Part shown: positions 4,057 to 64,000 of the stretch, in pieces
Position numbering within the stretch: the stretch's first letter is position 1
Layout of the letters: each line of letters begins with the position of its first letter
From: an uncultured archaeon
GTDB taxonomy: Archaea > EX4484-52 > JAADEF01
DNA: 64,000 nt
Assembly (NCBI GenBank): GCA_964407715.1
Contig: CAYOWP010000004.1
Coordinates: 9,668-73,667 of the forward strand
Direction: 5' to 3'
Notes under the pieces: model-generated
Told to the model about the DNA's origin: nothing
What the model saw: the letters and a program-made list of their open reading frames with translations, nothing else
Databases searched by the model: none
Position numbers and translations under genes: made by a program

Positions 4057-4557
4057 TTACCATTTCCATCCTTCTTTTCTCATCAATCCAATAATATTTG
4101 TACATTCAACTCCAAATTGCTTACAAACAAAGGGAATATTAACCTTGTTTGGTCTAAATCTCTCTTCTGTGATTATTACCCTTACTTCAACTTTTGGTAC
4201 TAATTTGTATTGTTTTTCTTTTTCCAAAGCTAACGCTATAAGCCAAGGATCAGCATCTATCTCTTTATCGGTGTCTATTATTCCTGGAAATTTGGCAGTG
4301 ATATCTTTCATAATCTTTATTTGTTGAGGTGTAATATCTTTAAACATAGTCCTTCTTTCTTTTGCCCACTTATATGCTGAATCATACTTTTTTGAAAGTT
4401 CCTTTAAAACAAATTTATGAGAGATTAATCTCTCTTCTCTAATAAGTCCATCTAAATTCTTCCATAATCTCGGAAAAATGTCTAAAGGATATAACCTAAA
4501 TAAATCTATTATCGAACATGTGTCTATAATATATATGAATCTCTTGGTATGGTTCAT
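4057..4557 (-). CDS. DUF4411 PIN-like protein (putative toxin component)
   Basis: 166 aa; N-terminal IIDTCSIID acidic PIN-like motif and FPRLWKNL motif typical of DUF4411; 5-nt gap to upstream ImmA gene. Confidence 0.55.
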   Translation of the reverse strand: MNHTKRFIYIIDTCSIIDLFRLYPLDIFPRLWKNLDGLIREERLISHKFVLKELSKKYDSAYKWAKERRTMFKDITPQQIKIMKDITAKFPGIIDTDKEIDADPWLIALALEKEKQYKLVPKVEVRVIITEERFRPNKVNIPFVCKQFGVECTNIIGLMRKEGWKW

Positions 4558-4562
4558 CCTTA

Positions 4563-5723
4563 TTACCTCCTAAGAAAAGAAAGTATTTTCTCGTAATGGT
4601 TAGATTTTATCCCCAGATATTCCAAAGCTTGATCAAATGTTATATTTCCTTTTTCAAGATTCACTTCAACCAAGGAGATAAACTTCTCACCTTTTTCAAC
4701 TATACACCTTTTATATGGTGGTAAAAATCCTTCTTTTTCAGCAAATTTCTCCTTTCTTATCATTTCCTCATATTTTTCTTTAGTTAAATAACCCAACTTT
4801 ACCATATTGTAAAGTAGCATGCCTTTACTGATTTTATATCTTTTAGACAATTTTCTTAGCGTATCTTTTTCAAAAAGCACTGTTTTGTTTTCATCAAATA
4901 TTTTCTTAGCTATTTTTTGCGGAAATAAAAATTCAGAAGCAAAATCATTGCACCATTTTTCTATCTTGTTAATTTTTATTTTATCCAATAATGACAAGGA
5001 TTCCTCAGGTAAATCTATTCCAGATCTTTTTAGTAAAATATGCCCAAATTCATGAATAAGCGTGAATAATCTTGGTTCGACCTTTTCTTTGGAGTTTATA
5101 ACGATTACGAAAGGTTCTTCATCCGCTAGCGTAAATCCACGAGCATCTTCAATAGGCATTGGAATTTGAAATACGAAAATATTCAAATTTTCAATCTTTT
5201 TTCTGAGAAAATTGAATGCCTCATACGCATTTCTCCATCTTGTTTGAACTTCTTCATCTATTCCAAAATCATCCCTATATTCTTTAGCTATTTCTAATGG
5301 ATCTTGTTCTATGCTAACATGTTTTATGGTTGGCTTTGTACTTATTCCCAAATTTTCAAGTAAGCTCTTGGCAATTTTTTGTAATCTTCTTGCTAATCTA
5401 ATAGCCAAAAGAGTTTCTCTGCTAAAAACTCCTTCCTTATCTGGTAACATTCTATAATCCTTAGGTAGTGGTTTTTCTTTTGGTGGAGCCGGCAAGAAAA
5501 ATACAGATAAAGGCCTTTTAACATACTTAGCTAAATTTTCTAATTGTCTAAGAGTAGGTTTCTTCTCACCAATTAACCAAGCTTTTATATTCTCTTCCGA
5601 AACTTTGAGCTTTTTACTTAGCTCTTCAACTGTCCATCCAGAGGTCTCAATAGCCCATCTGAGCACTTCTGGCTTAACCTCAACCTCAAATGTTTTGGTT
5701 GTCATTTTTTCATCCCCTTTCAA
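4563..5723 (-). CDS. HTH (XRE-like) domain fused to ImmA/IrrE family zinc metallopeptidase
   Basis: N-terminal helix-turn-helix (WTVEELSKKLKVSEENIKAWL); HEFGH (HExxH) zinc-binding motif of the COG2856/ImmA family. Confidence 0.7.
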   Translation of the reverse strand: MKGDEKMTTKTFEVEVKPEVLRWAIETSGWTVEELSKKLKVSEENIKAWLIGEKKPTLRQLENLAKYVKRPLSVFFLPAPPKEKPLPKDYRMLPDKEGVFSRETLLAIRLARRLQKIAKSLLENLGISTKPTIKHVSIEQDPLEIAKEYRDDFGIDEEVQTRWRNAYEAFNFLRKKIENLNIFVFQIPMPIEDARGFTLADEEPFVIVINSKEKVEPRLFTLIHEFGHILLKRSGIDLPEESLSLLDKIKINKIEKWCNDFASEFLFPQKIAKKIFDENKTVLFEKDTLRKLSKRYKISKGMLLYNMVKLGYLTKEKYEEMIRKEKFAEKEGFLPPYKRCIVEKGEKFISLVEVNLEKGNITFDQALEYLGIKSNHYEKILSFLRR

Positions 5724-5937
5724 ACAATATACCTAACCAAGCAAATAACAAACCTAATATAAAGACTATTATCCTTTCACTAAAGTTTAGATTAGAAACA
5801 AAAATAGATATAACTATTGCTACAAATCCTAACAATACTGCCATAGCTGTCCCCGAAAGAATATTATTACTCATCTTTTTCACCTCCTCCACCAAACACC
5901 CACTAGCATAGGATTTTATTTTCTCTATCTGCTCCAT
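5710..5937 (-). CDS. small two-TM membrane protein
   Basis: 75 aa; two hydrophobic helices; overlaps the ImmA gene start by 14 nt, consistent with translational coupling. Confidence 0.3.
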   Translation of the reverse strand: MEQIEKIKSYASGCLVEEVKKMSNNILSGTAMAVLLGFVAIVISIFVSNLNFSERIIVFILGLLFAWLGILFERG

Positions 5938-6104
5938 TTTTCTAAGAATTTTATTAATTGCTTTATCTCATTTCTTGCCTCTGGTGGTATAATTATGTTA
6001 CTAGTAGTTTTCCAAGTACCATTCCATCTTGATTCTGCTATCGTAAAATAAAAATCAACAGGATGACTTTTTGAATTTATTATGACATGATTAGGTCTTT
6101 TCAT
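5925..6104 (-). CDS. possible 59-aa protein at the head of the ImmA/DUF4411 operon
   Basis: Hand-translated minus-strand ORF MKRPNHVIINSKSHPVDFYFTIAESRWNGTWKTT...; purine-rich GGATGGGAGAGG immediately 5' of the ATG; 13-nt overlap with the next gene; below the 60-aa cut-off of the ORF track. Confidence 0.3.
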   Translation of the reverse strand: MKRPNHVIINSKSHPVDFYFTIAESRWNGTWKTTSNIIIPPEARNEIKQLIKFLEKWSR

Positions 6105-6170
6105 CCTCTCCCATCCTTCACTGCCAAATCTCTCAAGAATTAGGAATTATATTTTATAAGATGGGTAAAA

Positions 6171-6199
6171 AATTTATAAATTTTTTGAATTCGGGAGGC
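6171..6199 (+). promoter_or_regulatory. TATA-like box (AATTTATAAATTTTTT) and GGGAGG ribosome-binding site upstream of the RNA methyltransferase gene
   Basis: A/T-rich TATA-like element ~40 nt and GGGAGG ~16-21 nt upstream of the ATG at 6214. Confidence 0.3.
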
Positions 6200-6213
6200 A
6201 TTTCAAAAGTATT

Positions 6214-7176
6214 ATGGATAACAAAAAAGAGAGCATACCGATTATTCCTTCTGAGTTCAAGGCAAGGTATCACAAACTTTTGGGCAAGGAAAACAAAACA
6301 TTCTTAAGATATTGCATGAAACCCCTAAAAAAGAGCATACGTCTCAATCCCATAAAAACAGATATTAAGGAAATCAAAAAAAGGTTAGAGGAAAAATATG
6401 GATGGAAACTCAAAAAGATTCCATGGTATAAATATGGCTTCTGGATAGAAAATGAAGATGTAAAGGAAGGTGTTGTTGGAAATACATTAGAACATTTTAT
6501 GGGATATTATTATGTGCAGGAAGCTGCATCAATGATTCCTCCTGTTGTTCTTGATCCAAATGAAGATGATTTAGTATTGGATATGTGCGCAGCTCCAGGA
6601 TCAAAAACAACACAAATATGTGAGATGATAAACAATAAAGGCACAATAATAGCAAATGATGTAGATATTCCAAGAATAAAGGCATTAAGGTTTAACATAG
6701 AAAAACTTGGATGTGCCAATGTTGTTGTTACAAGAATGGATGGAAGAGAATTTAGCAAAACTAAGTTGAAATTTGACAAAGTACTAGTGGATGCGCCATG
6801 CTCTGCAGAGGGTACAATACGAAAGGATTGGAAAGCATTATCAAGGTGGAGCATAAATCTAATAAAAAGCATTTCAGGATTGCAAAAGAAATTGATATTG
6901 GCTGCTTATGATTCTTTAAAGGAAGGTGGTACACTTGTGTATTCAACGTGTACTCTTTCTCCAGAAGAAAATGAAGGAGTCATAAATTATCTCATAGAGA
7001 ATAGAGAGGGAGTCAAAATAAAGAAAATAGATATTCCTGGGATTAAATATCATAAAGGAGTCGTTGAATGGGAAAAAGAAAAGTATTGCTCAGATGTAAA
7101 GAAAATAGCAAGAATATATCCACATGATAACGACACAGAAGGATTTGTAATAGCAAAAATTGTCAAGGAAACATGA
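6214..7176 (+). CDS. NOL1/NOP2/Sun-family RNA cytosine-C5 methyltransferase
   Basis: SAM-binding DMCAAPGSKT motif, catalytic PCS and TC motifs (DAPCSAEGT, YSTCTLSPEENE). Confidence 0.8.
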   Translation: MDNKKESIPIIPSEFKARYHKLLGKENKTFLRYCMKPLKKSIRLNPIKTDIKEIKKRLEEKYGWKLKKIPWYKYGFWIENEDVKEGVVGNTLEHFMGYYYVQEAASMIPPVVLDPNEDDLVLDMCAAPGSKTTQICEMINNKGTIIANDVDIPRIKALRFNIEKLGCANVVVTRMDGREFSKTKLKFDKVLVDAPCSAEGTIRKDWKALSRWSINLIKSISGLQKKLILAAYDSLKEGGTLVYSTCTLSPEENEGVINYLIENREGVKIKKIDIPGIKYHKGVVEWEKEKYCSDVKKIARIYPHDNDTEGFVIAKIVKET

Positions 7177-7205
7177 AAATTTTTATATGTTAACCTAATT
7201 TCAAA

Positions 7206-7500
7206 ACTTGGTTAAGAGGAAAGATAAGCTCGTAGGAGGTCATCCAACAGCAGCTAACCTTTTTGATTGGTTAGCTGCTCCTAAAGCCCTTGTGTTAGCG
7301 ATCTCCTCGCGTTAACCAGTTATTTTTAAAAAATGGTTAAGGGGAAAATGTCCTCTTAATGAAGCACATTGCAGCAGCTAACCTCAGAAAGCGGTTAGGA
7401 AGCTGCTAACCTCTTTGAGTGGTTAGCTGCTTCAAAACCTTTGGGAAAAGTGGTATCTTCGCATTAACCAATCTCAGATCAGTTGCATTTCGGGGTGTAA
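7206..7500. repeat. Repeat locus R1: GTTAACC hairpin plus AGCAGCTAACC/GGTTAGCTGCT hairpin family
   Basis: Perfect hairpin CAGCAGCTAACC-N9-GGTTAGCTGCTC at 7248-7280; CGCGTTAACCA...TGGTTAAGGGG hairpin at 7308-7344; further GGTTAGGAAGCTGCTAACC copies. Confidence 0.8.
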
Positions 7501-7528
7501 AACTTGTGGTATCAAATGCGTCAATTAA

Positions 7529-7603
7529 CGAGCCCGAGGGGATTTGAACCCCTGACCTGCAGCTTAGGAGGCTGCCGCTCTAACCAAGCTGAGCTACGGG
7601 CCC
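7529..7603 (-). tRNA. tRNA-Arg (anticodon CCT)
   Basis: Cloverleaf folded by eye: acceptor GGGCCCG/CGGGCTC, D-arm GCTC-AGCTTGGTTA-GAGC, anticodon arm GCAGC-CTCCTAA-GCTGC, T-loop TTCAAAT; 75 nt. Confidence 0.8.
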
Positions 7604-7620
7604 GTAACAACACAAGAAGA

Positions 7621-10023
7621 TTACTCTATCTCTATGCTATTGCTGTTATGATATTCAATTCTCTTTACATGATGCATCATTACAATGTCCTTTTCAAATG
7701 GAATGAATTTCTCATTTATTTTTAAAAGATTTATCTCATCTCTCAAACTCATATTCTTATCCTTTTTATATTTCCATACCGCTTTATTTATCTCAATTAA
7801 ATCCTCAAAATCGACAGAGGAATATATATCAATCTTCTCAGGAAATCTCATCTCAATTATATTCTTCTTATATACATCCTTCATGATTTTATATGTAATA
7901 AAAGGCACAACAGGATGTAGCATAACCAATATATCTTTTAAAATTTTGTGTAATGTATAAAGCGCTGATTTTTGTTCCTCCTGGGAATAAATTCCCTCGG
8001 AGTTATATGCACGGGATTTTACCATCTCAATATAATGGCTCGCAAAGACATCCCATAGATAATCCCTCAATAATGTTGCAGCATTGTGTATCTCATATTT
8101 CATATACCTCTCATATGCCTCATCTATAATGCGGTTATGGAAACATAACATGCTCTTATCTAAATCCGTAAGTTTATCTAAAGGAAAACTATCCACTATC
8201 TCAAAAGCGCTAACAAATCTTGAGACATTCCACAATTTTGTAAGAAACTTACTTGCAGATTCTATTCGCTCAAAACTTATTCTAAAGTCTCCTTTATGCA
8301 TATTTCCCTCAAATGCACACCATAACCTAAAAGGCTCTGCACCATATCTCTTAAGTATCTCTTGCGGATCTATCACATTTCCCAAACTTTTGCTCATCTT
8401 GTTACCATGCTCATCCAACACATGATAGTGTATCCACACGTGATCAAAAGCCTCCTTACCTGTCAATAAGTACACTCTGAGCAAGGTATAGTATAACCAT
8501 GTCCTCACTATCTCCTTTCCTTGAGGTCGCAACGTGATTTTGCCTCCTATCTTCTTAAAGAATTCTTGATCCCTCAGATAACCACCAATAAAGAGAGGTG
8601 TAATCGAGGAATCAAACCACGTATCAAAAACTCTTGTCTCTCCTATAAACTCCTTACTTCCGCATTTTGGACATTCATTAACAGGAGGTTTTTCTTTCCA
8701 TGGAATATAATACCTCCCGGATTCTGGAACAATTACTTCACCACATTTCTTGCAATACCATAATGGAATCTCAGTAGCATAGTATCTTCTCCTTGATATA
8801 GGCCAATCAAAAGAAATCGTATCTATCCAATTTTCCAAGATTTGACGCGAATCCTCAGAGAAGAATTTGATTTTCCTTGAAATCTTACGGATCTCGTTCT
8901 TGAACTCAACCTGTTTCAAATAAAGCTCCCTTAATGGAATAAACTCAATAGGTGTTTTTGTTCTTTCACATACTGGTATTTTATGCCTTATTTTCTCCTT
9001 CTTAACCACATATCCCTTATCCTCAAGAATCTCCACAATCTTCTTTCTCGCATCCTCTACTTTTAATCCTGCTATTGGTCCTGATTTCTCATTCATCTTG
9101 CCATCCTCATCTATAAGAATTATTGGCTCAAGATTTTGCTCTCTAAAGAATTGAATATCTGTATAATCACCAAAGGAACACATCATCACTAACCCTGTAC
9201 CAAACTCTTTTTTAGCATAGGGATGTGCTTTTATTGGTACTTCCCTATTATAAACAGGCAAAATAGCATGTTTACCATTTAAGTGCTTATATCTCTCATC
9301 TTGTGGATTAAAGATTATCATCTGACATGCCCCTAAGAGCTCTGGTCTAGTAGTTGCTATCACTATCTTCTCTCCTGTTTCCTTAACCTCAAAAGTGATA
9401 TACACCAAATATCCCTCAACTTCCTTATATTCTATCTCAGAATCTGCAACAGTAGTTTTTAACTCCGGACAATAATTGCTTATATATTCTCCCTCATAGA
9501 TTAATCCTCTTTTCCATAAATCAATAAATGTTGCTTGAGTCAATGCTCTATACTCGGGCATATCAGTTAAGTATACATCCCCTATATCTGTACCAACATC
9601 CCATGAATTAAAGCTTATTCCAAGTCTAAAAAAAGTCTCTGCACTCTTAAGTGAGTACTCCTCCAATAATTTTTTACATGCCTCTATAAATTCCTCTCGT
9701 GTAACTTCCTCAGGAGAGATGTTTAATATCTTCTCAACAGATACCTCTATCGGCAACCCATTTCTATCCAATCCTAAAGGAAATAAGACCTCATAACCTA
9801 TTAACCTTCTAAACCTTGCGAACATATCCATTAATGTATAGGTTGTTGCATGACCAATATGTACTGGTGAGTTAACATATGGAGGAGGAGTATCTATAGA
9901 GTATATCTTCTTATTCGTTTTCTTATTGAACCTATACATCTTCTTTGATCTCCATTCCTCAGCTATCTCCAATTCCCAATCTTTATTCCATGTTTTCTCC
10001 CTTAACTTAAACTCAGACATCAA
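7621..10023 (-). CDS. valS: class I aminoacyl-tRNA synthetase, most likely valyl-tRNA synthetase
   Basis: IDTPPPYVNSPVHIGHA (HIGH) and KMSKSLGN motifs ~490 aa apart, consistent with a CP1 editing insertion; WPISRRRYYATEIPLWYC resembles Val/IleRS; 800 aa. Confidence 0.6.
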   Translation of the reverse strand: MMSEFKLREKTWNKDWELEIAEEWRSKKMYRFNKKTNKKIYSIDTPPPYVNSPVHIGHATTYTLMDMFARFRRLIGYEVLFPLGLDRNGLPIEVSVEKILNISPEEVTREEFIEACKKLLEEYSLKSAETFFRLGISFNSWDVGTDIGDVYLTDMPEYRALTQATFIDLWKRGLIYEGEYISNYCPELKTTVADSEIEYKEVEGYLVYITFEVKETGEKIVIATTRPELLGACQMIIFNPQDERYKHLNGKHAILPVYNREVPIKAHPYAKKEFGTGLVMMCSFGDYTDIQFFREQNLEPIILIDEDGKMNEKSGPIAGLKVEDARKKIVEILEDKGYVVKKEKIRHKIPVCERTKTPIEFIPLRELYLKQVEFKNEIRKISRKIKFFSEDSRQILENWIDTISFDWPISRRRYYATEIPLWYCKKCGEVIVPESGRYYIPWKEKPPVNECPKCGSKEFIGETRVFDTWFDSSITPLFIGGYLRDQEFFKKIGGKITLRPQGKEIVRTWLYYTLLRVYLLTGKEAFDHVWIHYHVLDEHGNKMSKSLGNVIDPQEILKRYGAEPFRLWCAFEGNMHKGDFRISFERIESASKFLTKLWNVSRFVSAFEIVDSFPLDKLTDLDKSMLCFHNRIIDEAYERYMKYEIHNAATLLRDYLWDVFASHYIEMVKSRAYNSEGIYSQEEQKSALYTLHKILKDILVMLHPVVPFITYKIMKDVYKKNIIEMRFPEKIDIYSSVDFEDLIEINKAVWKYKKDKNMSLRDEINLLKINEKFIPFEKDIVMMHHVKRIEYHNSNSIEIE

Positions 10024-14395: not shown

Positions 14396-14945
14396 GCCTT
14401 TGGAAAGTGATTTTCCCTGCGTTAACCAGTTATTTTGATAAATATGGTTAACGGGAGAGAGAGCCATTTGAGAGAGCTGAGTATAGTATGATAGCCTTTG
14501 AAAGCAGTTAGGAAGCAACTAACCTTTAAAAGCGGTTAGCTGCTCTAAAATCTTTGTGTTAGTGATATCTTCCCGTTAACCAATTTTTTATTTTTAAAAA
14601 TGGTTAAGGGGAAGTATACCTTCTCAAAGGATATCTTACAGCAGCTAACCATTTCAAAGCAGTTAGGAAGCAGCTAACCTTTTAGGGAAGGTTACCATAC
14701 TCCTAAGCCTTTGTGTTAGTGATATCTTCGCGTTAACCAATTTTTTATTTTTAAAAATGGTTAAGGGGAAAAATACCTCATCAAAGAATATCAAACAGCA
14801 GCTAACCTTAAATTGGGTTACTATGCTGTAAAACCTTAGTTATAGTGATATCTTCGCGTTAACCAGTTATATTCAAATAAAAAACATGGTTAAATGGAAA
14901 ACCTGACCATCTGAAAAACCATGGTAGAGCAGCTACCCAAAATAA
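14396..14945. repeat. Repeat locus R2a: ~3.5 tandem ~150-bp units of the GTTAACC-hairpin / GCTGCTAACC family
   Basis: Each unit starts GATATCTTC[C/G]CGTTAACCA...TGGTTAAGGGGAA, followed by CAGCAGCTAACC-N9-(G)GTTAGGAAGCAGCTAACC. Confidence 0.8.
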
Positions 14946-30415: not shown

Positions 30416-31045
30416 TCGCCTGTTAACCATAATTTGTTGAAAATGGTTAACGGGAAGAAATCGCTCTTCCAAAGCTTTGCGGCGGGATATCCTTTTTTGA
30501 AGGTTAGGTGCTTCACAACCGCTTTGAAATGTTAGCTGCTCTTATGTGTTTTCTTAGAGGGTTAGGTTTCCCGTTAACCAATTTTTTATTGAGAAGATTA
30601 TGGTTAACGGGAAGAAATCGCTATCACAAAAGTTTTTTTGAGTGCGCTATCCTCTTTTAAAAGGTTATCTGCTTCCTAACCGGTTTATTAGGTTAGCTGC
30701 TCTTATGTGCTTCATTAAGGTGACATCTTCCCGTTAACCAATTTTTTATTGAGAAGATTATGGTTAACGGGAAGAAATCGCTATCACTAAGGCTTCGCAG
30801 CATGCTAACCTTTATCAAGGGTTAGCTGCTTCCAAACCGCTTTAAAAGGTTAGCTGCTCTTATGTGTTTTCTTAGAGGGTTAGGTTTCCCGTTAACCATA
30901 TTTTTATTGAGAAGATTATGGTTAACGGGAAGAAATCGCTCTTCCAAAGCTTTGCAGCATGCTAACCTTTATCAAGGGTTATCTGCTTCCAAACCGCTCT
31001 GAAAGGTTAGCTGCTGTAATATGCTTCATTAAGATGACCTTTACC
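30416..31045. repeat. Repeat locus R3: ~4 tandem ~160-bp units
   Basis: Perfect hairpin CCCGTTAACCA-N20-TGGTTAACGGG at 30570-30611, 30730-30771 and 30888-30929 (period 158-160 bp); each followed by AGCATGCTAACC-N9-GGTTAGCTGCT and further GGTTAGCTGCTCTTATGTG half-sites. Confidence 0.85.
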
Positions 31046-44148: not shown

Positions 44149-44522
44149 GCATTGTCCAATAATTCTTTGTTGTTAAGCGGAAAAGTAACCTCTTAAAGAA
44201 GCGCATTAAAGTAGCGAACCTTGTAGAGCTAATGCGATTTAAAAGGTTAGCTGCTTTATTGCCTTTTGAGAAGGTACATCTCTAACCTCTCGTTAAAGAT
44301 TAGCTGCTCTGATGTGTGTTGTTGATGTGGTATGCTTCCTGTTAACCATGTTTTATTAAAAACATAGTTAACGAGAAAATATCTTCATTCACTCATGGAA
44401 TGCAGCATGTTAATCTTTCGTTAAATGTTAGTTGCTTCATAACCATTATAAAGAGTTAGCCGCTATAAGTGCTATTTGCGCGTTAAATTTCCGCTTAACA
44501 ATAAAGAATTATTGGACAATAC
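44149..44522. mobile_element. MITE-like composite element (374 bp) bounded by ~35-bp terminal inverted repeats and carrying hairpin-repeat cargo
   Basis: 5' GCATTGTCCAATAATTCTTTGTTGTTAAGCGGAAAAG; 3' TTTCCGCTTAACAATAAAGAATTATTGGACAATAC (reverse complement); the interior has GGTTAGCTGCT, GATTAGCTGCTC and a long GTTAACCATGTTTTATTAAAAACATAGTTAAC hairpin. Confidence 0.75.
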
Positions 44523-55710: not shown

Positions 55711-55990
55711 AATGGTTAACGGGAAGCATAACCTCTTCTCAAGGCATATCACAGCAGGTAACCTCTCCGAGCGTTTAGGAAGCAGCTACCCTGAAGAAAG
55801 GTTAGCATGCTTTTATGTGTTTGGTATTGTGATATCTGCGCGTTAACCAATTTTTATTTATTCAAAATAAATAAAAATTCGTTATCAGAAAACATACCAT
55901 CTCAAAAACCACATTGGAGCAGCTAATATTTTATTTTGGTTAGGTGCTATAAAACCTTGCAAAAGATGAGATCTTCGCGTTAACCATAAC
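55711..55990. repeat. Repeat locus R7: degenerate copies of the GTTAACC / GCTAACC hairpin family upstream of tRNA-Glu
   Basis: TGGTTAACGGGAAG, CACAGCAGGTAACC, TTTAGGAAGCAGCTACCC; CGCGTTAACCAA-TTTTTATTTATTcaaaATAAATAAAAA long palindrome; GATCTTCGCGTTAACCA. Confidence 0.7.
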
Positions 55991-56044: not shown

Positions 56045-56118
56045 GCCCCGGTAGTCTAGTCCGGTAAGGATAGCGGCCTTTCGAGCCGCAGACCCGGGTT
56101 CAAATCCCGGCCGGGGCA
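56045..56118 (+). tRNA. tRNA-Glu (anticodon TTC)
   Basis: GCCCCGG/CCGGGGC acceptor, anticodon arm GCGGC-CTTTCGA-GCCGC, T-arm CCCGG-GTTCAAATC-CCGGG; 74 nt; no encoded CCA. Confidence 0.85.
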
Positions 56119-56119
56119 T

Positions 56120-56869
56120 ATGAGAGTAAAAGTTACTCTTCTCATGAAGGAAAACACAGGTTTTTTACCATATTCATATCAGTATTTTTTATCTTCTCTT
56201 GTATATTCTGCTCTTGAGAAGGCAAATCCTGAGTTATCTTTTTATCTTCATGACCCGTCTCCTTTTAAAGGGTTTGTCTTTTCATCTTTGTTTTTTGAAA
56301 GGTTTCATAATAAAAAGCAAGGAATTTATTTTGAAGGGAAGGTTGTTTTTTATTTTTCTTCATTTTTTAAAGAAATTACTCGTTCTTTTGTTGAAGGAAT
56401 TTTATCTCTTAAGGATATCTATTTAGGAAAAAATAAATTTGATCTTGAAAAAATAGAAGTATTAGAAGATCCTGATTTCACAACAATAAATACTTTTAAT
56501 TTGCTTTCTCCTCTAATTCTCCAAAAGCCCATCAAAATAGGAAATAAACTTAAAGGTATAGATTTATTCCCACATGACAAAGACTTTTATGATTATCTAT
56601 TAAAAAATATCAAGAAGAGATATGAAAAATTTTATGGAAAATCTTTATCTTCTAACATATTTATAGAATTTTTAAATTTTAAACCAAAGAGATATTGTAT
56701 AAAAGGAGAGTATTACCGAGGGCCGCTAGGAACATTGCGCATAATAGCACCGAAAGATGTTTTACATTTACTATATCACACAGGCATTGGTTCAAAAAAC
56801 TCGATGGGATTTGGAATGCTTGCACCTTACTATGATTCTCACGGAAAACAACATAAAAATAAGATTTAA
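56120..56869 (+). CDS. cas6: CRISPR endoribonuclease Cas6
   Basis: 249 aa; C-terminal glycine-rich loop GIGSKNSMGFGML (GhGxxxxxGhG) diagnostic of Cas6; ATG 2 nt after tRNA-Glu. Confidence 0.85.
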   Translation: MRVKVTLLMKENTGFLPYSYQYFLSSLVYSALEKANPELSFYLHDPSPFKGFVFSSLFFERFHNKKQGIYFEGKVVFYFSSFFKEITRSFVEGILSLKDIYLGKNKFDLEKIEVLEDPDFTTINTFNLLSPLILQKPIKIGNKLKGIDLFPHDKDFYDYLLKNIKKRYEKFYGKSLSSNIFIEFLNFKPKRYCIKGEYYRGPLGTLRIIAPKDVLHLLYHTGIGSKNSMGFGMLAPYYDSHGKQHKNKI

Positions 56870-56916: not shown

Positions 56917-58566
56917 ATGAACTCCTTGTTGCAATATGCGAAAGAGGAAGAAAAAAATAAAACCCATGCTCCTTCAGAACTACACTTTACAAGTAATTCT
57001 ATAAATTCCATAAAATTTGAAATACCTATTCATATAGATGCATGGATGTTAAATGGAATAGAAACACTTTATACTCTACTTAATGATCTGAAAGACTGCA
57101 AAGTAGAACTTGAATCTGATAGGTTAAAGGTAGAAATATTCGATCTGGAAAGTTTTCTAAAAATTTTTGCAGGAAAGATAGAAGATAAACAGAATAAAGT
57201 AATTTTTGTAAAAAAACTTGATAATAAGGGACAGGAAAAATTTATTAAAAAAGATTTCGTGCTTATTCAATACGGAAAAGCTATTAATGGAAAAAATGTG
57301 CTTAAAGAGAAAATTTATTTGGAAACAGAAAAACGTCTTAAAGATATTTTTTTAGCCATCAAAAAAGGGAACAAAACATGTATCCTCTGCGAGCGAAAGT
57401 TCAAAAAATCCGTTGATAAGTTAAAACAAGCTGTACATCCCTTTGCGACCAAAATAAAAAGTTTGAGCGGTGTGAGAACTCTAAAGGAAAATTACGACAA
57501 TCTCTGCCCACTGTGTTATTTGATAGGAACTTTGGAGTGGTTGGATGAAGCTATTCTTTATAGATGTTCCTTAGGTAGTGGTAAGCAAACTTATTCTGTG
57601 ATCTTTCTTCCATTTGAATTGAATCTCAAGAAACTTCATGAATGTAAGGTGGAATATAGAAAAATTTTGAAGAGTAATATAAATTCTCCAGTATCAAATT
57701 TACTAAAAATTGTACCATCCTCAGATGGTAAAGAAAAAAAGATTGGTTATGAAGGTGAGTACACAACGATTCTTAAGTTCTTTGAAAGATTTGTGAAGGA
57801 AATTCTTGGGGAATATGGCAGAGATAATTTCGAAGAAATTGACGAGATTTTTGGATATGCTGAGAGAAAATTCTGCAAATCTTGGATCATGCTTAAAATC
57901 CCTTCTGGAAATGTTAAAAACATTAAATTAAGCCGCTTAGATTTAAACAATGATTTTATTAAATTATTGATAGACCTGGAAAGAAAAGATATTTTCATCT
58001 ACGACAATATCGTGGACAAAATAGGAGTGCGTGATAAGAACGGCAAATTTCTTCCTAAAGAAACGTCTGAAACGAAAGAATACACGGCAAAAACCGTTAT
58101 TTTTGATAATTTCAGAGATTTCTCAAGAATGTTTTTACCGAGAAAAAATATAGTAAAATATCATGGTAATTTAAAAGATTTGGACGAACTAATAAAATTG
58201 TGGAGGTTGATGCCCATGAAACTTGATGAAAACCTAAAAGATATAAAAGATGCTGCAAAGACACTTGCAAAACTTCTGAAAAACCACTTAAGTATTTTGT
58301 ATGAAATGAATAAAGCCAGAACAAAAGAAGAGTTCATAAGAATCTATCAGCAAGCCTGCAGGAGATTATTGGGAGTTAGAGAAGAAGAAAGAACCAACAT
58401 TTACCCACCAGCACTCGAGAAGTTTGCAGACCTGCTGATAAATTCCTCTAACAACGAGTGGAAAACTCTAAGAGATGTGTTGCTTATCTATACTTCGATT
58501 TACATATCTAGAGGAGAATATAAAAATACTTTCACCGGTGAAGAAAATGAAGGAAACAAACCTTGA
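56917..58566 (+). CDS. cas8b: type I large subunit, Cas8b-like (Cst1/Csh1 position)
   Basis: 549 aa; CxxC...CxxC zinc knuckle (TCILCERKF...LCPLCYLIG); position between cas6 and cas7/cas5/cas3; family assigned from synteny and size. Confidence 0.5.
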   Translation: MNSLLQYAKEEEKNKTHAPSELHFTSNSINSIKFEIPIHIDAWMLNGIETLYTLLNDLKDCKVELESDRLKVEIFDLESFLKIFAGKIEDKQNKVIFVKKLDNKGQEKFIKKDFVLIQYGKAINGKNVLKEKIYLETEKRLKDIFLAIKKGNKTCILCERKFKKSVDKLKQAVHPFATKIKSLSGVRTLKENYDNLCPLCYLIGTLEWLDEAILYRCSLGSGKQTYSVIFLPFELNLKKLHECKVEYRKILKSNINSPVSNLLKIVPSSDGKEKKIGYEGEYTTILKFFERFVKEILGEYGRDNFEEIDEIFGYAERKFCKSWIMLKIPSGNVKNIKLSRLDLNNDFIKLLIDLERKDIFIYDNIVDKIGVRDKNGKFLPKETSETKEYTAKTVIFDNFRDFSRMFLPRKNIVKYHGNLKDLDELIKLWRLMPMKLDENLKDIKDAAKTLAKLLKNHLSILYEMNKARTKEEFIRIYQQACRRLLGVREEERTNIYPPALEKFADLLINSSNNEWKTLRDVLLIYTSIYISRGEYKNTFTGEENEGNKP

Positions 58567-58846
58567 AACGATAAAGAGCTTGCTCGAAAAACAAAAACAT
58601 GAACTGAAAATGAAATACGGAGTTAAAAGCATAGGTATATTCGGCTCTTTCGTGCGGGGCGAAGCAAAGAGTAGTAGTGATATAGATGTGCTTGTGGAAT
58701 TTGAAAAACCAATAAGAATGTTCAAATTTCTGGAGCTGGAAGAATATTTATCAAAACTCTGCGGACGTAAGGTTGATCTAGTATCCAAAAAAGCCCTTAA
58801 GCCGAATATAGGAAAGCACATACTGAAAGAGGTTGTGGAAATATAA
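58547..58846 (+). CDS. minimal nucleotidyltransferase (MNT / Pol-beta superfamily)
   Basis: GIFGSFVRGEAKSSSDIDVLVEF (GS...DxD) motif; ~99 aa from the ATG at 58547; overlaps the cas8b 3' end by 20 nt in another frame. Confidence 0.75.
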   Translation: MKETNLETIKSLLEKQKHELKMKYGVKSIGIFGSFVRGEAKSSSDIDVLVEFEKPIRMFKFLELEEYLSKLCGRKVDLVSKKALKPNIGKHILKEVVEI

Positions 58847-58867
58847 ATTCCAAAAAAGGTGTAAAAT

Positions 58868-60472
58868 ATGGCAAAATTGGAACGCACGGATAAACCTGTA
58901 AGCGTACTTTTAGAAGAATTGAAAAGAGGCGAGTTAGGTTTACCAGAAATCCAGAGAGGATACGTATGGAATAGACCGCAAGCAAGAGATTTGGTGGATT
59001 CTCTTTATAGAGAATATCCTTCAGGATTAATCCTCTTGTGGAAACCTAAGGAATTACCACAACTTCGCTCTCCGGATGTAGAACAGCAATCCGAAACAAA
59101 AAGAAATCCAACTTACTTAATTTTAGATGGTCAACAACGTTTAACATCCCTTGCGAAAGTGTTTGATGAAGAAGACGAAGATATAAACATTTATTTTAAT
59201 GTAGAAACTGAGGAATTTCAATTGTTCAGTACAAAATTGAAAGCAGATCCTTTATGGGTATCTGTGAAAGATGTTTTGAATAAGGGAGCTGTAAAAGTCT
59301 GGAGAGAGCTTAAGAAACGTTTATTTGAGAGGGTCTTACCACAAGTGAATGAAAAAAAGCTAGATGAATATTTGGAAAGGTTATCAAGATTAGAAAAAAT
59401 AAAGGATTATACATATCCTGTAATGATAATACACACAGATGATTATGAAGAAGTAACAGAATCGTTTATTAGAGTGAATTTCAATGGAACCAGACTAAAA
59501 GAGGCTGAAATGGCAATGGCACAATTGGCTTTCAGGTGGCCAGGAGTACTTGTTAAAGAATTTGAAAAAGCATTAGAAGATTATGAACAAATTAATTTTG
59601 ATTTCGAGCCTCGTTTTCTAATGAGATGTTTTGTGGCCATAGGTACAGGTCAAAGCAGATTTAAACATTTAACAAATCTCTGGAGAAAGAACTTAAATGA
59701 ACTTCAAGAGATATGGAGAAAAACTAAAGAAGGAATAGATTATACTATAAACTTCCTTAAGAACAACGCCGGAATAGAATCTTCAGAATGGATACCATCA
59801 ATTAATGCATTAGTACCAATTGTAGTCTATTTATCAGAACGCCAATCTTTAACAGAGAAAGAAGAAAGAATCTTGTTATTTTGGTTTTTTGTTTCCACAA
59901 TATTTGGAAGATTTACAGGTAGCCCTGAAACAAAATTAGATCAGGACTTGAAAGCACTCAAGAGTGAGGAACCTCTATTATCGCTTATAACAAATCTTAG
60001 GAGAGAAATGGCGAGTTTTGAGGTAACTCCAGAAATGCTTATAGGTAAATATCAAAGAAATCCCCATCTCCCACTAATATTTGTAATTTGTAGGAATAAC
60101 AAAGCTAAAGATTGGTTCACAGGCACAGTGCTAAGTTCAACTAATGTCGGTCCATCGCATAGACTGGAACTTCATCATATATTTCCAAAATCTTTGTTAA
60201 AAAACAATAATTATAAACCGCAAGATATAGATGCCCTTGCAAACATAGCCTTTCTATCTCAACGTGCAAACAGATCTATTTTGAATTCGCCTCCAAGTGA
60301 TTATCTTAAAGACATAGATGAAGAGAAACTCCGGGCACAGTACATTCCTATCGATAAAAATCTTTGGAAACTTGATAACTTTAGTAAGTTCTTAGAGGAA
60401 AGAAGATACCTACTAGCCAATGCTATAAACGATTATCTTAAGAGTTTAGGAGGGGATATTTATGAGATTTAA
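58868..60472 (+). CDS. DUF262 (ParB-like NTPase) fused to DUF1524 (HNH-like nuclease): GmrSD-type type IV restriction-like protein
   Basis: N-terminal IQRGYVWNRPQARDLVDSLYREYPSGLILLW...YLILDGQQRLTSL (DUF262 signature); C-terminal LELHHIFPKS...NIAFLSQRANRS (DUF1524 His-Me finger); 534 aa. Confidence 0.8.
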   Translation: MAKLERTDKPVSVLLEELKRGELGLPEIQRGYVWNRPQARDLVDSLYREYPSGLILLWKPKELPQLRSPDVEQQSETKRNPTYLILDGQQRLTSLAKVFDEEDEDINIYFNVETEEFQLFSTKLKADPLWVSVKDVLNKGAVKVWRELKKRLFERVLPQVNEKKLDEYLERLSRLEKIKDYTYPVMIIHTDDYEEVTESFIRVNFNGTRLKEAEMAMAQLAFRWPGVLVKEFEKALEDYEQINFDFEPRFLMRCFVAIGTGQSRFKHLTNLWRKNLNELQEIWRKTKEGIDYTINFLKNNAGIESSEWIPSINALVPIVVYLSERQSLTEKEERILLFWFFVSTIFGRFTGSPETKLDQDLKALKSEEPLLSLITNLRREMASFEVTPEMLIGKYQRNPHLPLIFVICRNNKAKDWFTGTVLSSTNVGPSHRLELHHIFPKSLLKNNNYKPQDIDALANIAFLSQRANRSILNSPPSDYLKDIDEEKLRAQYIPIDKNLWKLDNFSKFLEERRYLLANAINDYLKSLGGDIYEI

Positions 60473-60522
60473 AAACATGGCATGGATTATAATAAAAATG
60501 TTTGTGCACGGAGGTGAGATAA

Positions 60523-61497
60523 ATGAAAGGAATAAGTATTGTTTGGTTGTCCAAAACAGATTTGACGAACCTTAATGCAGGTGAAGGAGAAACAAATTAT
60601 ATTGATATCAAGAAATTCAGAAAGGAAGGAAAAGAATATCCCTACGTCTCAGGTCAAGCTATGAGATTTTACATTAAAGAAGCAATAAGAAGAAATCTTA
60701 AAGATAGAGAGTATATGTGTGTTCCTGATGATAAGGGTGAAACATGTGGAAATATTCAAAAGTGTATTCTATGCGATCTCTTCGGATTTATGAGTACTAT
60801 TAAAAAAGGTACTCCATGGCCAGGATATGAGAATGGACATCCAGGGGGAGCTGTAACTAGAGTATCTCCTGTGAAAGTGTCTCCTGCCATAGGTATGTTA
60901 CCGTTTGACGAAAATGTTGTCATAGACTTCCTAACAAGAAGAAAATCTCAAAAAGAAACAGGAGAATTATCTGGAGATATAGTGAATGTTGAAATAGGAA
61001 CAAACATTTATAAATGTGGAATTTCAATCGATGTAGTTAGAGTAGGGGGTGATGAAGTAATAGATAATGAAAATAGAACTGTAAAAATAGAATATCTTAT
61101 GCCCTCCGAAGAGAGAAAAAATAGAATTAAAAAAGTCTTGGAAGCTCTAAGGTATTTAACGGATTATTCGAAGCAGGCGAGATTGCTGACAGATTTCACT
61201 CCTGATGTGATATGCATAACATTCCAGAGTAAATACTCTCACAGGCTGCAGAAGCTGTTTGAGTTTGTAATCGAGAACGGGAAAATCGTAAGGAAGCTTG
61301 ATGTGAAAAGAATGGAAGAAATATTGAATGACGTAAAGGATTACAGCGACAGAATAATGTTTGGAATGATATCTGGAGTAATAGAGAACGAAGAAGAAGT
61401 AAAGGAAGTTATGCAGAAGTTTGGAATTGAAGTAAAAACACCGAAAGAGGTGATTGAAGAAGCTCTGAATTACATAAACAAAGTGGCGGTAGAGTGA
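60523..61497 (+). CDS. cas7: Cas7 (Csa2/Cst2/DevR family) Cascade backbone subunit
   Basis: N-terminal [17 protein letters not shown]...[17 protein letters not shown] matches the Cas7 RRM thumb motif. Confidence 0.8.
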
Positions 61498-62162
61498 GAG
61501 TGATCGAAATGCTTGGCCTGGTTTTTTATCTGGAAGGAATTTATTTTTGTTGTTTCAGGCAGCCGACCACAACAAGCCTAATCCTATCATTCCCCGTTCC
61601 TCCTTTTACTACTATCCGTGGTTTCTTAGAAAATGCTATAGGCTATGAAAAGGATTCATTTGCTCTACAAGAAAAAGATTTGCTCATTGGAATAAGACCT
61701 TTAAGCGAAATTGAGAAAACAACTGAACTGACAAAACTACTAAAGTTAAAAGAAAACGAGCCATGCTTTAAGAGAACTTTTCCTTCTTCACCTATGTTCA
61801 AAACTTTTCTAGTTAATCCTAAATATAAGGTATATTTAGTAGGAGATAATAAACTTATAAAAGAGATTGCAGAAAAGTTGAAAGATCCTTCCCGCCCTCT
61901 ATATCTGGGACAGTCCGACGATTTTGTGGATGTTAAAAATATAGAGACTATGGAAGTGGAAAAAACTAAGAGTTTGAAAATATATAGCGTTATTGAAGGT
62001 TTTCACGAAAATTGCGAGATTGTTAAACTTCCATACAAATTTATAAATAACGGGAAAGATGTGGAAATGAAAATTATCTCGATTCCAAAAAAGTTTCCGT
62101 TGAAGTTGAAAGAAGAAGTCGAGTGCTTTAAATTTGGTGAAGAATATGTGTGGTGCGTTTAG
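61494..62162 (+). CDS. cas5: Cas5 (Cas5t-like) Cascade subunit
   Basis: [33 protein letters not shown]: glycine-rich Cas5 N-terminal motif (PPPST..G...A.G); 4-nt overlap with cas7. Confidence 0.75.
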
Positions 62163-62249: not shown

Positions 62250-64000
62250 ATGCTCAAATTGGATAGGAAGAATGTGTTAGCAAAATTTTCAGAAAAAACT
62301 GGAAAAAAGCAAACTTTATCTGGTCACACAATAGATTGTCTTAAAATCCTAAGATGCTATTTTGAAAAAAATGAGGTAATTATAGAGGTATTTTGTAAAC
62401 GATGGAACATAGATAAACAAACATTCATGAGAAACTTGTTCGTTGCGGTTTATCTTCACGATATCGGGAAATTAACAAAAGAGTTTCAGAAGAGAATTAG
62501 TGAGGGAAAACACTCACAGCAGTATCCGCATGCATTTTATGGATTTCCAATTGTTTGGGAGGTCTTTAAAAAACAATTCCAGGAATTCGTGTATTCCGAC
62601 GAGCCATTAATAGAAACTTTAAGTGTTCTTGCACATCACACGCAGCTTTATGATGGAATTTACGAAAACGCGCAGATAAAGGAAGTGGATATACTGAAGA
62701 ACGAGATAATTGAATTCGTAAACGGAATTGAAAAGGTTTATGAAAGCTTAAGTTTCAAAAAATTTTTCGAGTTAAGATGGAATAACCTACAACTACACGA
62801 TTTAAAAAGTTTTGCTTTATTTGAAAGGAATCCCCAGCACAAAATTCCAAACGGTATAAGGAGATTGAGAGAAAAAATTGAAAATTTAAAGGGAAATAAT
62901 TTACAAAAAATTTGTGCACTAAAATCCATATACACATCCTTCCTTTCTATTTTAAAACTCTGTGACTACTATGCAAGTGTAGAGTTCTCAGAGTATGCCT
63001 GTAAGGATAACACAGAAAAAGAAATTTTTGATGATGTTTTGAAAAAACCTGAAAAATATGTGTTATCCTTGCCATCCATAACTGAGGATATCATCCTTAG
63101 AAAACATAAGCCTTATGAATTTCAAAAAGAGATAAAGGAAAAATCTCCAGAATTCTGCTTTTTGTTTGCTCCATGCGGGAGAGGAAAAACAGAAGCAGCT
63201 TTACTCTGGGCATTTGAAGTTTGTAAAAAATACAATAAAAACAAAATTATTTTTGCGATGCCAACTCAAACGACAAGCAATGCTATGAGAGATAGATTTG
63301 TAGAATTACTAGAGAGTGCTGGTCTAAATGGCGAAGAATATGTTGGTTTATATCATGGAAAGAGTTTTATTAAGTTTAAAGAAGAAAGAGTGAGAGATCA
63401 AGAGGAAGAGAAAGATGAATTAAGTGATGAGGATATAGAGGAGATAAAAGGAGAAAATTTTAAAGGAAATATATTTTTCAAGCCAATTACTATCACAACG
63501 ATAGATCATCTTATCCTTTCATTTGTTCATGGTTTTCCCCAGGCGGATTTCGCATTGGGTAATTTGCAAAACGCTGTGATCATATTTGATGAAGTGCATT
63601 ACTATGAAACGCAAACTCTAAAACATTTAGTTGATTTGTTTAAAATTTTAAGAAAAATGAGAGTTCCACACTTGCTTATGAGCGGAACTCTTCCAGATTT
63701 TCTGATTGAAAGAATTAATAAGGATTCAAAAGAGGAAAATATAAAATACGAGTTAATTAAAGATAAAATAGGACTTCAATATACTCCCTTCAAAATCGAA
63801 AAATATAAAGAACCCTTAATCACAAAAGAAAACGTAAATGAGAAAGTAATTGAGGAGATAATAAAAAATTTCAAGATAGGATACAATCAATTTATCATAC
63901 TTAATACAGTCGAGAGGTCACAAAGAGTATATAAAATATTAAAAGAAAAATTAAAGAAATTTGGTGAAAAATATGTAAAAGATATTTTCCTCTTGCATTC
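62250..64000 (+). CDS. cas3: Cas3 HD nuclease-helicase fusion (partial; runs off the window end)
   Basis: HD domain (LSGHT...VAVYLHDIGK), then SF2 helicase Walker A FAPCGRGKTEAALLWA and DEVH box IIFDEVHYYE; SD GGAGCAGGGAGAG upstream of the ATG at 62250. Confidence 0.85.
   Translation, partial: MLKLDRKNVLAKFSEKTGKKQTLSGHTIDCLKILRCYFEKNEVIIEVFCKRWNIDKQTFMRNLFVAVYLHDIGKLTKEFQKRISEGKHSQQYPHAFYGFPIVWEVFKKQFQEFVYSDEPLIETLSVLAHHTQLYDGIYENAQIKEVDILKNEIIEFVNGIEKVYESLSFKKFFELRWNNLQLHDLKSFALFERNPQHKIPNGIRRLREKIENLKGNNLQKICALKSIYTSFLSILKLCDYYASVEFSEYACKDNTEKEIFDDVLKKPEKYVLSLPSITEDIILRKHKPYEFQKEIKEKSPEFCFLFAPCGRGKTEAALLWAFEVCKKYNKNKIIFAMPTQTTSNAMRDRFVELLESAGLNGEEYVGLYHGKSFIKFKEERVRDQEEEKDELSDEDIEEIKGENFKGNIFFKPITITTIDHLILSFVHGFPQADFALGNLQNAVIIFDEVHYYETQTLKHLVDLFKILRKMRVPHLLMSGTLPDFLIERINKDSKEENIKYELIKDKIGLQYTPFKIEKYKEPLITKENVNEKVIEEIIKNFKIGYNQFIILNTVERSQRVYKILKEKLKKFGEKYVKDIFLLH

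Follow-up and report, generated by a model that had tools for sequence, protein, structure and literature searches.

Why should a gene for a minimal nucleotidyltransferase (MNT) and a gene for a 534-residue DUF262-containing protein lie inside the effector operon of an archaeal CRISPR-Cas system? The question is raised by a 64-kb stretch of DNA (hereafter the window) from an uncultured, low-GC archaeon (~32% GC), the 3' end of which is occupied by a type I-B CRISPR-Cas locus on the + strand. Two genes on this same strand fill the junction between cas8b (56917..58566), which encodes the large subunit, and cas7 (60523..61497). The MNT gene (58547..58846) runs from an ATG that gives it a 20-nt overlap with the cas8b stop and codes for 99 amino acids; a 21-nt spacer with an AAGGTG Shine-Dalgarno sequence (58847-58867) separates it from the open reading frame (ORF) of the 534-residue protein (58868..60472), and a further 50 nt lead to cas7. 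An initial annotation had described this arrangement, and its coordinates, overlap and gap all hold; it had also interpreted the two genes as a coupled pair and as a co-opted accessory or back-up defence. We consider it likely that the locus instead holds an autonomous restriction enzyme of the GmrSD/BrxU type (type IV), lodged within the Cascade operon next to an MntA antitoxin that was orphaned when a hepT toxin gene was replaced.

The two inserted genes

The 534-residue protein matches the DUF262 model of Pfam (PF03235, GmrSD_N) at E=1.9e-29, with 103.7 bits against a cutoff of 33.2, so that this part of the initial assignment stands. Its second part, a C-terminal DUF1524 HNH-like domain, falls short in Pfam, as PF07510 scores only 17.1 bits (E=0.005; gathering cutoff 23), and is upheld by other lines of evidence. 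The PADLOC model HEC-05 matches the whole protein at E=4.1e-46, the best stretch being residues 123-525; a profile built from 26 homologues matches BrxU (7p9k) at E=1.4e-17 in three colinear segments; and an AlphaFold model, with a predicted local distance difference test score (pLDDT) of 83.9, is matched by Foldseek to BrxU over its full length (E=5e-14), to SspE next (E=1.5e-5), and weakly and partially to ParB N-domains and the HNH domains of Cas9. The domain order is an N-terminal DUF262/ParB-like NTPase, a helical linker and the C-terminal HNH-like DUF1524. The DGQQR motif (D87-R91) and residues H436, H437, N459 and N468 of the HNH-like domain are invariant in the 26 homologues, as are R40 and S45 of RDLVDS (40-45), which aligns with CRLFDS of BrxU; by the construction of this alignment (A1), the window protein retains every column that is invariant in its homologues. 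Given the HEC-05 match, the BrxU profile, the modelled fold and the invariant motifs, the predicted C-terminal nuclease domain is real despite its sub-threshold Pfam score, and sequence and predicted fold together place the protein in the BrxU/GmrSD family. An 'Rx4HxF' string at the HNH motif was considered as a target of MntA and set aside, its Arg not being conserved in the family.

BrxU itself (Escherichia fergusonii pEFER; PDB 7P9K), a type IV restriction enzyme of the GmrSD family whose gene lies within a BREX operon, is the best match in PDB by both sequence and fold. The two share a DUF262 domain with an RLFDS-like motif and DGQQR, the helical linker and the HNH-like DUF1524, and each comes from one gene that lies, in matching orientation, within a multigene defence operon, with homologues that are also found outside such operons. 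They differ in that their identity is only ~18%, in that the nuclease motif is HH here and DH in BrxU, and in the host operon, which is here an archaeal type I-B effector operon and not a BREX, Hachiman or type I restriction-modification (RM) operon; moreover, the gene in the window fills a slot that appears to have been held earlier by hepT. HEC-05 corresponds to BrxU in a study which reported that GmrSD-like genes often lie inside Hachiman, BREX and type I RM operons, in the orientation of the surrounding genes, and whose scope did not extend to CRISPR-Cas (bioRxiv 10.1101/2024.01.29.577857). The hallmarks of 'guilt by embedding' (Payne et al., 2024) are all present in our case, namely nesting in a multigene defence system, a shared strand and non-embedded homologues elsewhere. 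SspE and EcoCT GmrSD belong to the same DUF262 + DUF1524 superfamily; however, SspE is the weaker fold match, the sequence match is marginal (E=0.083), and neither ssp nor dnd genes occur nearby. The marks that SspE senses, phosphorothioates on host DNA, have no counterpart at this locus. The nuclease also matches PDC-M55C, the DUF262-like component of the multigene candidate PDC-M55 (E=2e-30), but the partner components A and B were not found beside it: PADLOC returned only Cas8b and PDC-S09/PDC-M05A models for the upstream cas8b and MNT genes, while cas7 and cas5 downstream were typed by Pfam and NCBIfam alone.

Elsewhere, the nuclease family stands alone. It has thousands of members, 65-77% identical across unrelated Archaea and Bacteria (Methanosuratincola, Thermoplasmatales, Desulfotomaculum, Thermosipho, Anaerolineae and Leptospira among the hosts), and an identity of this order across both domains indicates horizontal transfer. 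Single-sequence searches detected neither MNT nor cas genes within the 10-kb flanks of family members in 80 genome loci. No cas gene was called in the remaining eight of 88 family loci, and a 120-sequence MNT profile found no MNT among the 18,125 ORFs of the 88. At 73-77% identity, the three nearest homologues each occur as a lone gene in a defence island or an integrated element: their neighbours encode SIR2, an MmeI-type methyltransferase, a PLD-helicase or DUF1156/DUF499, or else they lie inside Cdc6-bearing integrated elements, and neither an MNT nor a cas gene was called near them. A scan of viral contigs gave no match to the family.

The nucleotidyltransferase assignment of the smaller gene is equally sound: PF01909 matches at E=4.8e-16 (59.4 bits, cutoff 21), PF18765 is also matched, and the solved minimal nucleotidyltransferase 1wot in PDB is found at E=2e-12. 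Its motif, GSFVRGEAKSSSDIDV, preserves the catalytic GSx2RG...DxD signature (G33-S-F-V-R-G38 ... D45-I-D47). The score against the NCBIfam MntA_antitoxin equivalog, 52.1 bits, lies below the cutoff of 60, and the best match in PADLOC is PDC-S09 (E=1.3e-31), one of the PDC models built from genes embedded in defence operons and among the commonest 'systems' in Archaea (PMC12988326). The closest MNT homologues for which we have genomic context have HepT partners, as in two pairs of one locus (L093), and lie directly upstream of the hepT genes with a 4-nt overlap; MNT-HepT is the widespread canonical unit. The window MNT has the fold and catalytic motif of MntA from the type VII MntA-HepT systems (e.g. 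Shewanella SO_3165/SO_3166, PMC7641770). Unlike in those systems, however, HepT is missing, the protein is below the equivalog cutoff for MntA, and the gene downstream encodes a predicted DNA nuclease of unrelated fold. A phmmer search with a HepT from a related locus (L091, see below) against all ORFs of at least 40 residues found none in the 64 kb, in agreement with the initial annotation. One residue sets the protein apart: R57 (58715-58717), where 98% of 119 homologues, the five closest included, have Gly (EKPIGMFKF -> EKPIRMFKF). This G57R change is unique to the window and may reflect relaxed or altered constraint following the loss of hepT.

The cas8b-cas7 junction in related loci

That cas8b and cas7 are normally contiguous, as the initial annotation had it, is borne out by ten related I-B loci, in which cas8b abuts or overlaps cas7 without an intervening gene. 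L101-L104 show an overlap of 4 nt between the stop of cas8b and the start of cas7; L100 looks alike, the gene after its cas8b being cut by the contig end but beginning with cas7 sequence; and in L095-L099 the two genes abut. Identity to the window is 65-76% for Cas8b in L100-L104 and 53-70% for Cas7 in L095-L099. A further locus (L105, Cas8b 73%) ends 17 nt past cas8b and its junction is not readable; in a metagenome scan, Cas7 patterns gave six loci and Cas8b patterns none. Since the ten related loci lack it, the insert is specific to a lineage and not a standard component of subtype I-B.

The most informative relative is L091, which carries P0125, the nearest MNT homologue with a gene neighbourhood that can be read. 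Here the order is cas8b-MNT-HepT-cas7-cas5-cas3, i.e. a canonical MNT-HepT pair sits in the very slot of the window insert; Cas8b is 66%, Cas7 82% and MNT 80% identical to the window proteins. At the DNA level (alignments A3 and A4) the two loci are colinear over the 3' end of cas8b, the cas8b/MNT junction and the MNT gene in its entirety. The alignment breaks off with the MNT stop codon (58846) and is taken up again at CGGAGGTGAG, the ribosome-binding site of cas7 (~60509); the conserved region around this site, CGGAGGTGAGATAA (60509..60522, +), is also where homology to the empty-junction loci resumes. Between these points, the hepT region of L091 (341 bp, 6301-6641) corresponds to a 1662-bp segment of the window (58847..60508, +) that has no homology to L091. 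As homology breaks at the MNT stop and returns at the cas7 ribosome-binding site, the alignments show an apparent swap of hepT for the nuclease gene.

Both states have parallels. Toxin-antitoxin pairs are common within archaeal cas cassettes (PMC3973734), and L091 likewise has one inside its type I-B effector operon. Toxin displacement has been described in defence loci (PMC3506569), and in the window, too, a toxin gene has apparently been replaced by another nuclease gene. The replacing gene, however, encodes a stand-alone restriction enzyme and not the toxin of a toxin-antitoxin pair, so that no obvious target remains for the antitoxin. An MNT in a non-cas setting (L092, 85% identical to that of the window) is likewise an orphan, followed by a 33-residue ORF and an AF2212-like/PIN pair of the vapBC type (L092 995-2015). 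Since this MNT, too, is without a HepT partner, toxin loss or replacement beside this MNT lineage is recurrent. Just upstream of the orphan in L092 there are also a fragmented MNT and HepT.

Several finer features of the breakpoints were examined. The last codon and stop of the MNT gene were considered as a contribution of the incoming cassette, an idea that was dropped because a 90% identical homologue (P0123) ends in Ile too. A target-site duplication, suggested by the resemblance of CGGTGAAGAAAATGAAGGAA ahead of the MNT ATG to the cas7 ribosome-binding site and start, was rejected since the same upstream sequence precedes the L092 MNT and hence came with the MNT cassette. Synonymous divergence (pS) between the window and L091 is 0.55 for MNT and 0.73-0.76 for the cas genes, a difference that is suggestive only; sliding-window identity gave no clear tract of recombination between the two loci, with MNT (~0.8) no closer than the conserved 5' end of cas7. 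Other genes have entered this operon family at other places: in L100 a DUF1186 gene lies between cas6 and cas8b (4143-4859), and in L101 two RAMP genes and a gene for a 974-residue protein follow cas5 in place of cas3 (4851-8219). The junctions of this family of cas operons seem to have been invaded repeatedly.

Origin and possible roles of the insert

The arrangement is likely to have been built in two layers. An MntA-HepT module (type VII, MNT/HEPN) would have landed at the 3' end of cas8b, a state that survives in L091; later, in the lineage of the window, a horizontally mobile, stand-alone BrxU/GmrSD-type gene would have taken the place of hepT and filled the interval between the MNT stop and the cas7 ribosome-binding site. 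Parsimony favours this order, with MNT-HepT first and the nuclease second, because MNT-HepT is the widespread canonical unit. As the pair is intact at the L091 junction and the nuclease family occurs elsewhere without MNT, the adjacency of MNT and nuclease in the window is best explained by history, namely the replacement of hepT, and not by function. By analogy with BrxU and GmrSD, the 534-residue protein would by itself be a type IV DNA endonuclease, dependent on NTP and on DNA modification. It could cover invaders with modified DNA and so complement CRISPR interference as BrxU complements BREX; in this respect the 'back-up defence' proposed in the initial annotation is plausible, while its notion of a co-opted accessory is not borne out. 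Read-through from the cas promoter would account for at least part of the expression of the nuclease, since all these genes share a strand, cas8b, MNT, the nuclease gene and cas7 are each preceded by a Shine-Dalgarno site of the GGTG type, and the + strand shows no terminator-like site between 55600 and 62300; co-transcription with Cascade is plausible. The MNT would be a leftover antitoxin with no part in the mechanism of the nuclease, which may persist by neutralising HepT toxins encoded elsewhere or because there has been too little time for decay.

Several observations, to which the sub-threshold PF07510 score belongs, weigh against this account. Window Cas7 and Cas8b are nearer to the empty-junction locus L104 (88% and 76%) than to L091 (82% and 66%), so that lateral spread of the cassette or repeated loss has to be invoked. 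The MNT-DUF262 state is known from one organism only and the MNT-HepT state also from one, which leaves parsimony as the basis for the direction of the swap. The MNT is not visibly decaying: its ORF is intact with the catalytic motif present, the ratio of non-synonymous to synonymous substitution (dN/dS) relative to L091 is 0.125, and 51 of the 55 columns that are at least 90% conserved among 119 homologues are kept, all of which would also fit a retained or a new function. Finally, a TATA-like AAATATAAAT (~58839-58848) lies ~20-30 nt upstream of the nuclease ATG, where stand-alone archaeal homologues have TTTAAAATATTTAAA (~25-30 nt upstream); it is the weaker of the two, but given its position the nuclease gene may have a promoter of its own. 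The leader of the window gene, with its Shine-Dalgarno sequence, resembles that of one such homologue (L083).

The state of the MNT gene bears most directly on the possibility that the two proteins form a new functional pair, in which MntA was re-used after the loss of hepT to control the nuclease by AMPylation or as an antitoxin, giving a hybrid module similar to type VII. The tight 21-nt spacing on one strand, the intact ORF with its catalytic residues and low dN/dS, and the listing of orphan MNT genes (PDC-S09 in PADLOC) as candidates embedded in defence operons would fit such a pair, and the unique G57R at a Gly that is 98% conserved could mean an altered partner specificity. MntA is known to recognise a specific HepT surface and a Tyr in an Rx4HxY motif. 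The nuclease has no conserved motif of this kind, the R of 'RLELHHIF' being Q in most homologues; its family does without MNT at the 88 other loci, those of the closest relatives (73-77%) included, and the arrangement is found in one organism only. We therefore regard a functional pair as quite improbable, and the coupling read into the two genes by the initial annotation gives way to an MNT that is the remnant of an MntA-HepT module beside a nuclease of independent habit. The wider proposal that the orphaned MntA has been exapted and adenylylates or otherwise gates either the GmrSD-like nuclease or a Cas protein is very doubtful. Were it true, a hybrid enzyme-controlled 'toxin' nuclease would be expressed from within a Cascade operon, and this would be the first time that a type VII antitoxin had been redirected to a DNA restriction enzyme, and that a restriction enzyme had been wired into the expression of a CRISPR effector.

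It is extremely unlikely that one or both proteins work with Cascade or Cas3, be it as an extra effector nuclease or as a regulator of interference or adaptation. The position of the genes in the middle of the effector operon and their probable co-transcription with it speak for such a role, which the initial annotation had raised. Yet the association is not conserved, as the insert is missing from the ten related I-B loci; no cas gene was detected by the DUF262 homologues in the 80 loci or called near the closest three; in L091 this slot is taken by hepT, an unrelated gene; and for archaeal type I systems in general there is minimal evidence of specific accessory genes (PMC3973734). It is unlikely as well that the two genes are inert passenger DNA, left by recent selfish insertions that bring the host no benefit and of which one or both are decaying. 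It would accord with the confinement of the insert to one lineage, the loss of the MNT partner, the non-conservative change at a near-invariant Gly and the selfish nature of toxin-antitoxin modules, which cas cassettes often receive. Against this, both ORFs are full length with intact translation signals, their GC content (0.33-0.37) matches that of the host (0.29-0.36), the nuclease retains all columns invariant in its 26 homologues, motif residues included (by construction of alignment A1), and members of its family that were tested experimentally defend against phage. An autonomous restriction enzyme beside a leftover antitoxin thus remains our preferred explanation.

The host cas locus and the nesting of defence genes

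The cas locus that received these genes begins, at its left edge, with a tRNA-Glu(UUC) gene (56045..56118, +; Rfam tRNA 68.9 bits, also called by ARAGORN), the 3' end of which lies 1 nt ahead of the start codon of cas6. With this spacing, the cas6 message may be made as part of a tRNA-mRNA precursor or released from it by processing; possibly the tRNA also marks an integration site for the island of cas genes as a whole. Then follow, all on the + strand, cas6 (56120..56869; PF01881, PF21350, and TIGR01877 at E=1.4e-38), cas8b (PADLOC Cas8b E=1.4e-129, in line with the 65-76% identical homologues and the junction sequences), the two inserted genes, cas7 of the Cst2/DevR type (TIGR02585 E=4.2e-43; PF01905), cas5b (61494..62162; PF09704, TIGR01895), which starts at a GTG at 61494 or, by the gene call on a longer copy of the contig (L001), at 61509, and the 5' part of cas3 (62250..64000), which runs off the window and was identified by gene calls and Pfam on L001. 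Beyond the end of the window, L001 carries the rest of cas3, then cas4, cas1 and cas2 (gene calls, Pfam), and downstream of cas2 a CRISPR array (L001 18028-19345) with 20 copies of the 30-nt repeat GTCTTAATAAGATCATAGTGGGATTGAAAT, identical save for the last base of the terminal copy, and spacers of 36-39 nt. With cas3, cas4, cas1, cas2 and an array of 20 repeats following on L001, the locus looks complete and active in sequence; as all the cas genes are intact and the 20 repeats identical, Cascade function is probably retained. Genes for fibrillarin, PCNA and Nop56/58 lie near the cas locus.

The two ends of Cas8b merit comment. The annotated protein (549 residues) has an N-terminus (56917-57010) ~30 residues longer than its relatives of 500-524 residues; since the PADLOC Cas8b model matches from residue 32, the true start may be downstream of the annotated one. 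At the other end, the final codons and the stop codon of cas8b fall within the MNT gene, so that the C-terminal tail of Cas8b is unlike that of its empty-junction relatives. The 3' part of cas8b can also encode a small subunit, and hence it is possible that the insertion, by altering the extreme C-terminus of Cas8b, affects Cascade. Two minus-strand ORFs (58468-58887 and 58797-58985) were treated as spurious because they overlap well-supported genes, as was a 37-residue + strand ORF called on L001 (~60462-60575), which overlaps the stop of the DUF262 gene and the start of cas7.

The window further contains a dispersed intergenic repeat with the core GATATCTTCCCGTTAACCA, for which there are 14 matches against 0.04 expected by chance (7300-7470, 14497-14883, 30440-31031, 44365-44383 and 55831-55986) and to which no Rfam family matches. 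Its units, ~157 bp long, are arrayed in tandem and in inverted orientation at 14.5 kb and at 30.4-31 kb, on either side of a 16-kb block with genes for a ParA-like ATPase and for very large CARDB/CarboxypepD_reg proteins. The repeat also occurs upstream of the tRNA-Glu/cas6 genes and near a tRNA-Arg gene.

The locus reveals no new mechanism. It is a single-lineage example of defence genes nesting in defence operons and carries no sign of a new CRISPR accessory; each of its ingredients was known before, and what is new is the host operon, a type I-B Cascade, together with a preserved before-and-after picture of the replacement of hepT. Both states of this replacement survive: a toxin-antitoxin pair in a Cascade operon and, in a related locus, the toxin exchanged for a mobile restriction nuclease. 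The pattern of nesting known from BREX, Hachiman, DISARM and type I RM operons hence extends to an archaeal CRISPR-Cas effector operon. The locus thereby offers a natural test case for two questions, namely whether an orphan MntA antitoxin keeps or changes its function, and whether a GmrSD-type nuclease, by analogy modification-dependent, broadens protection when co-expressed with Cascade.

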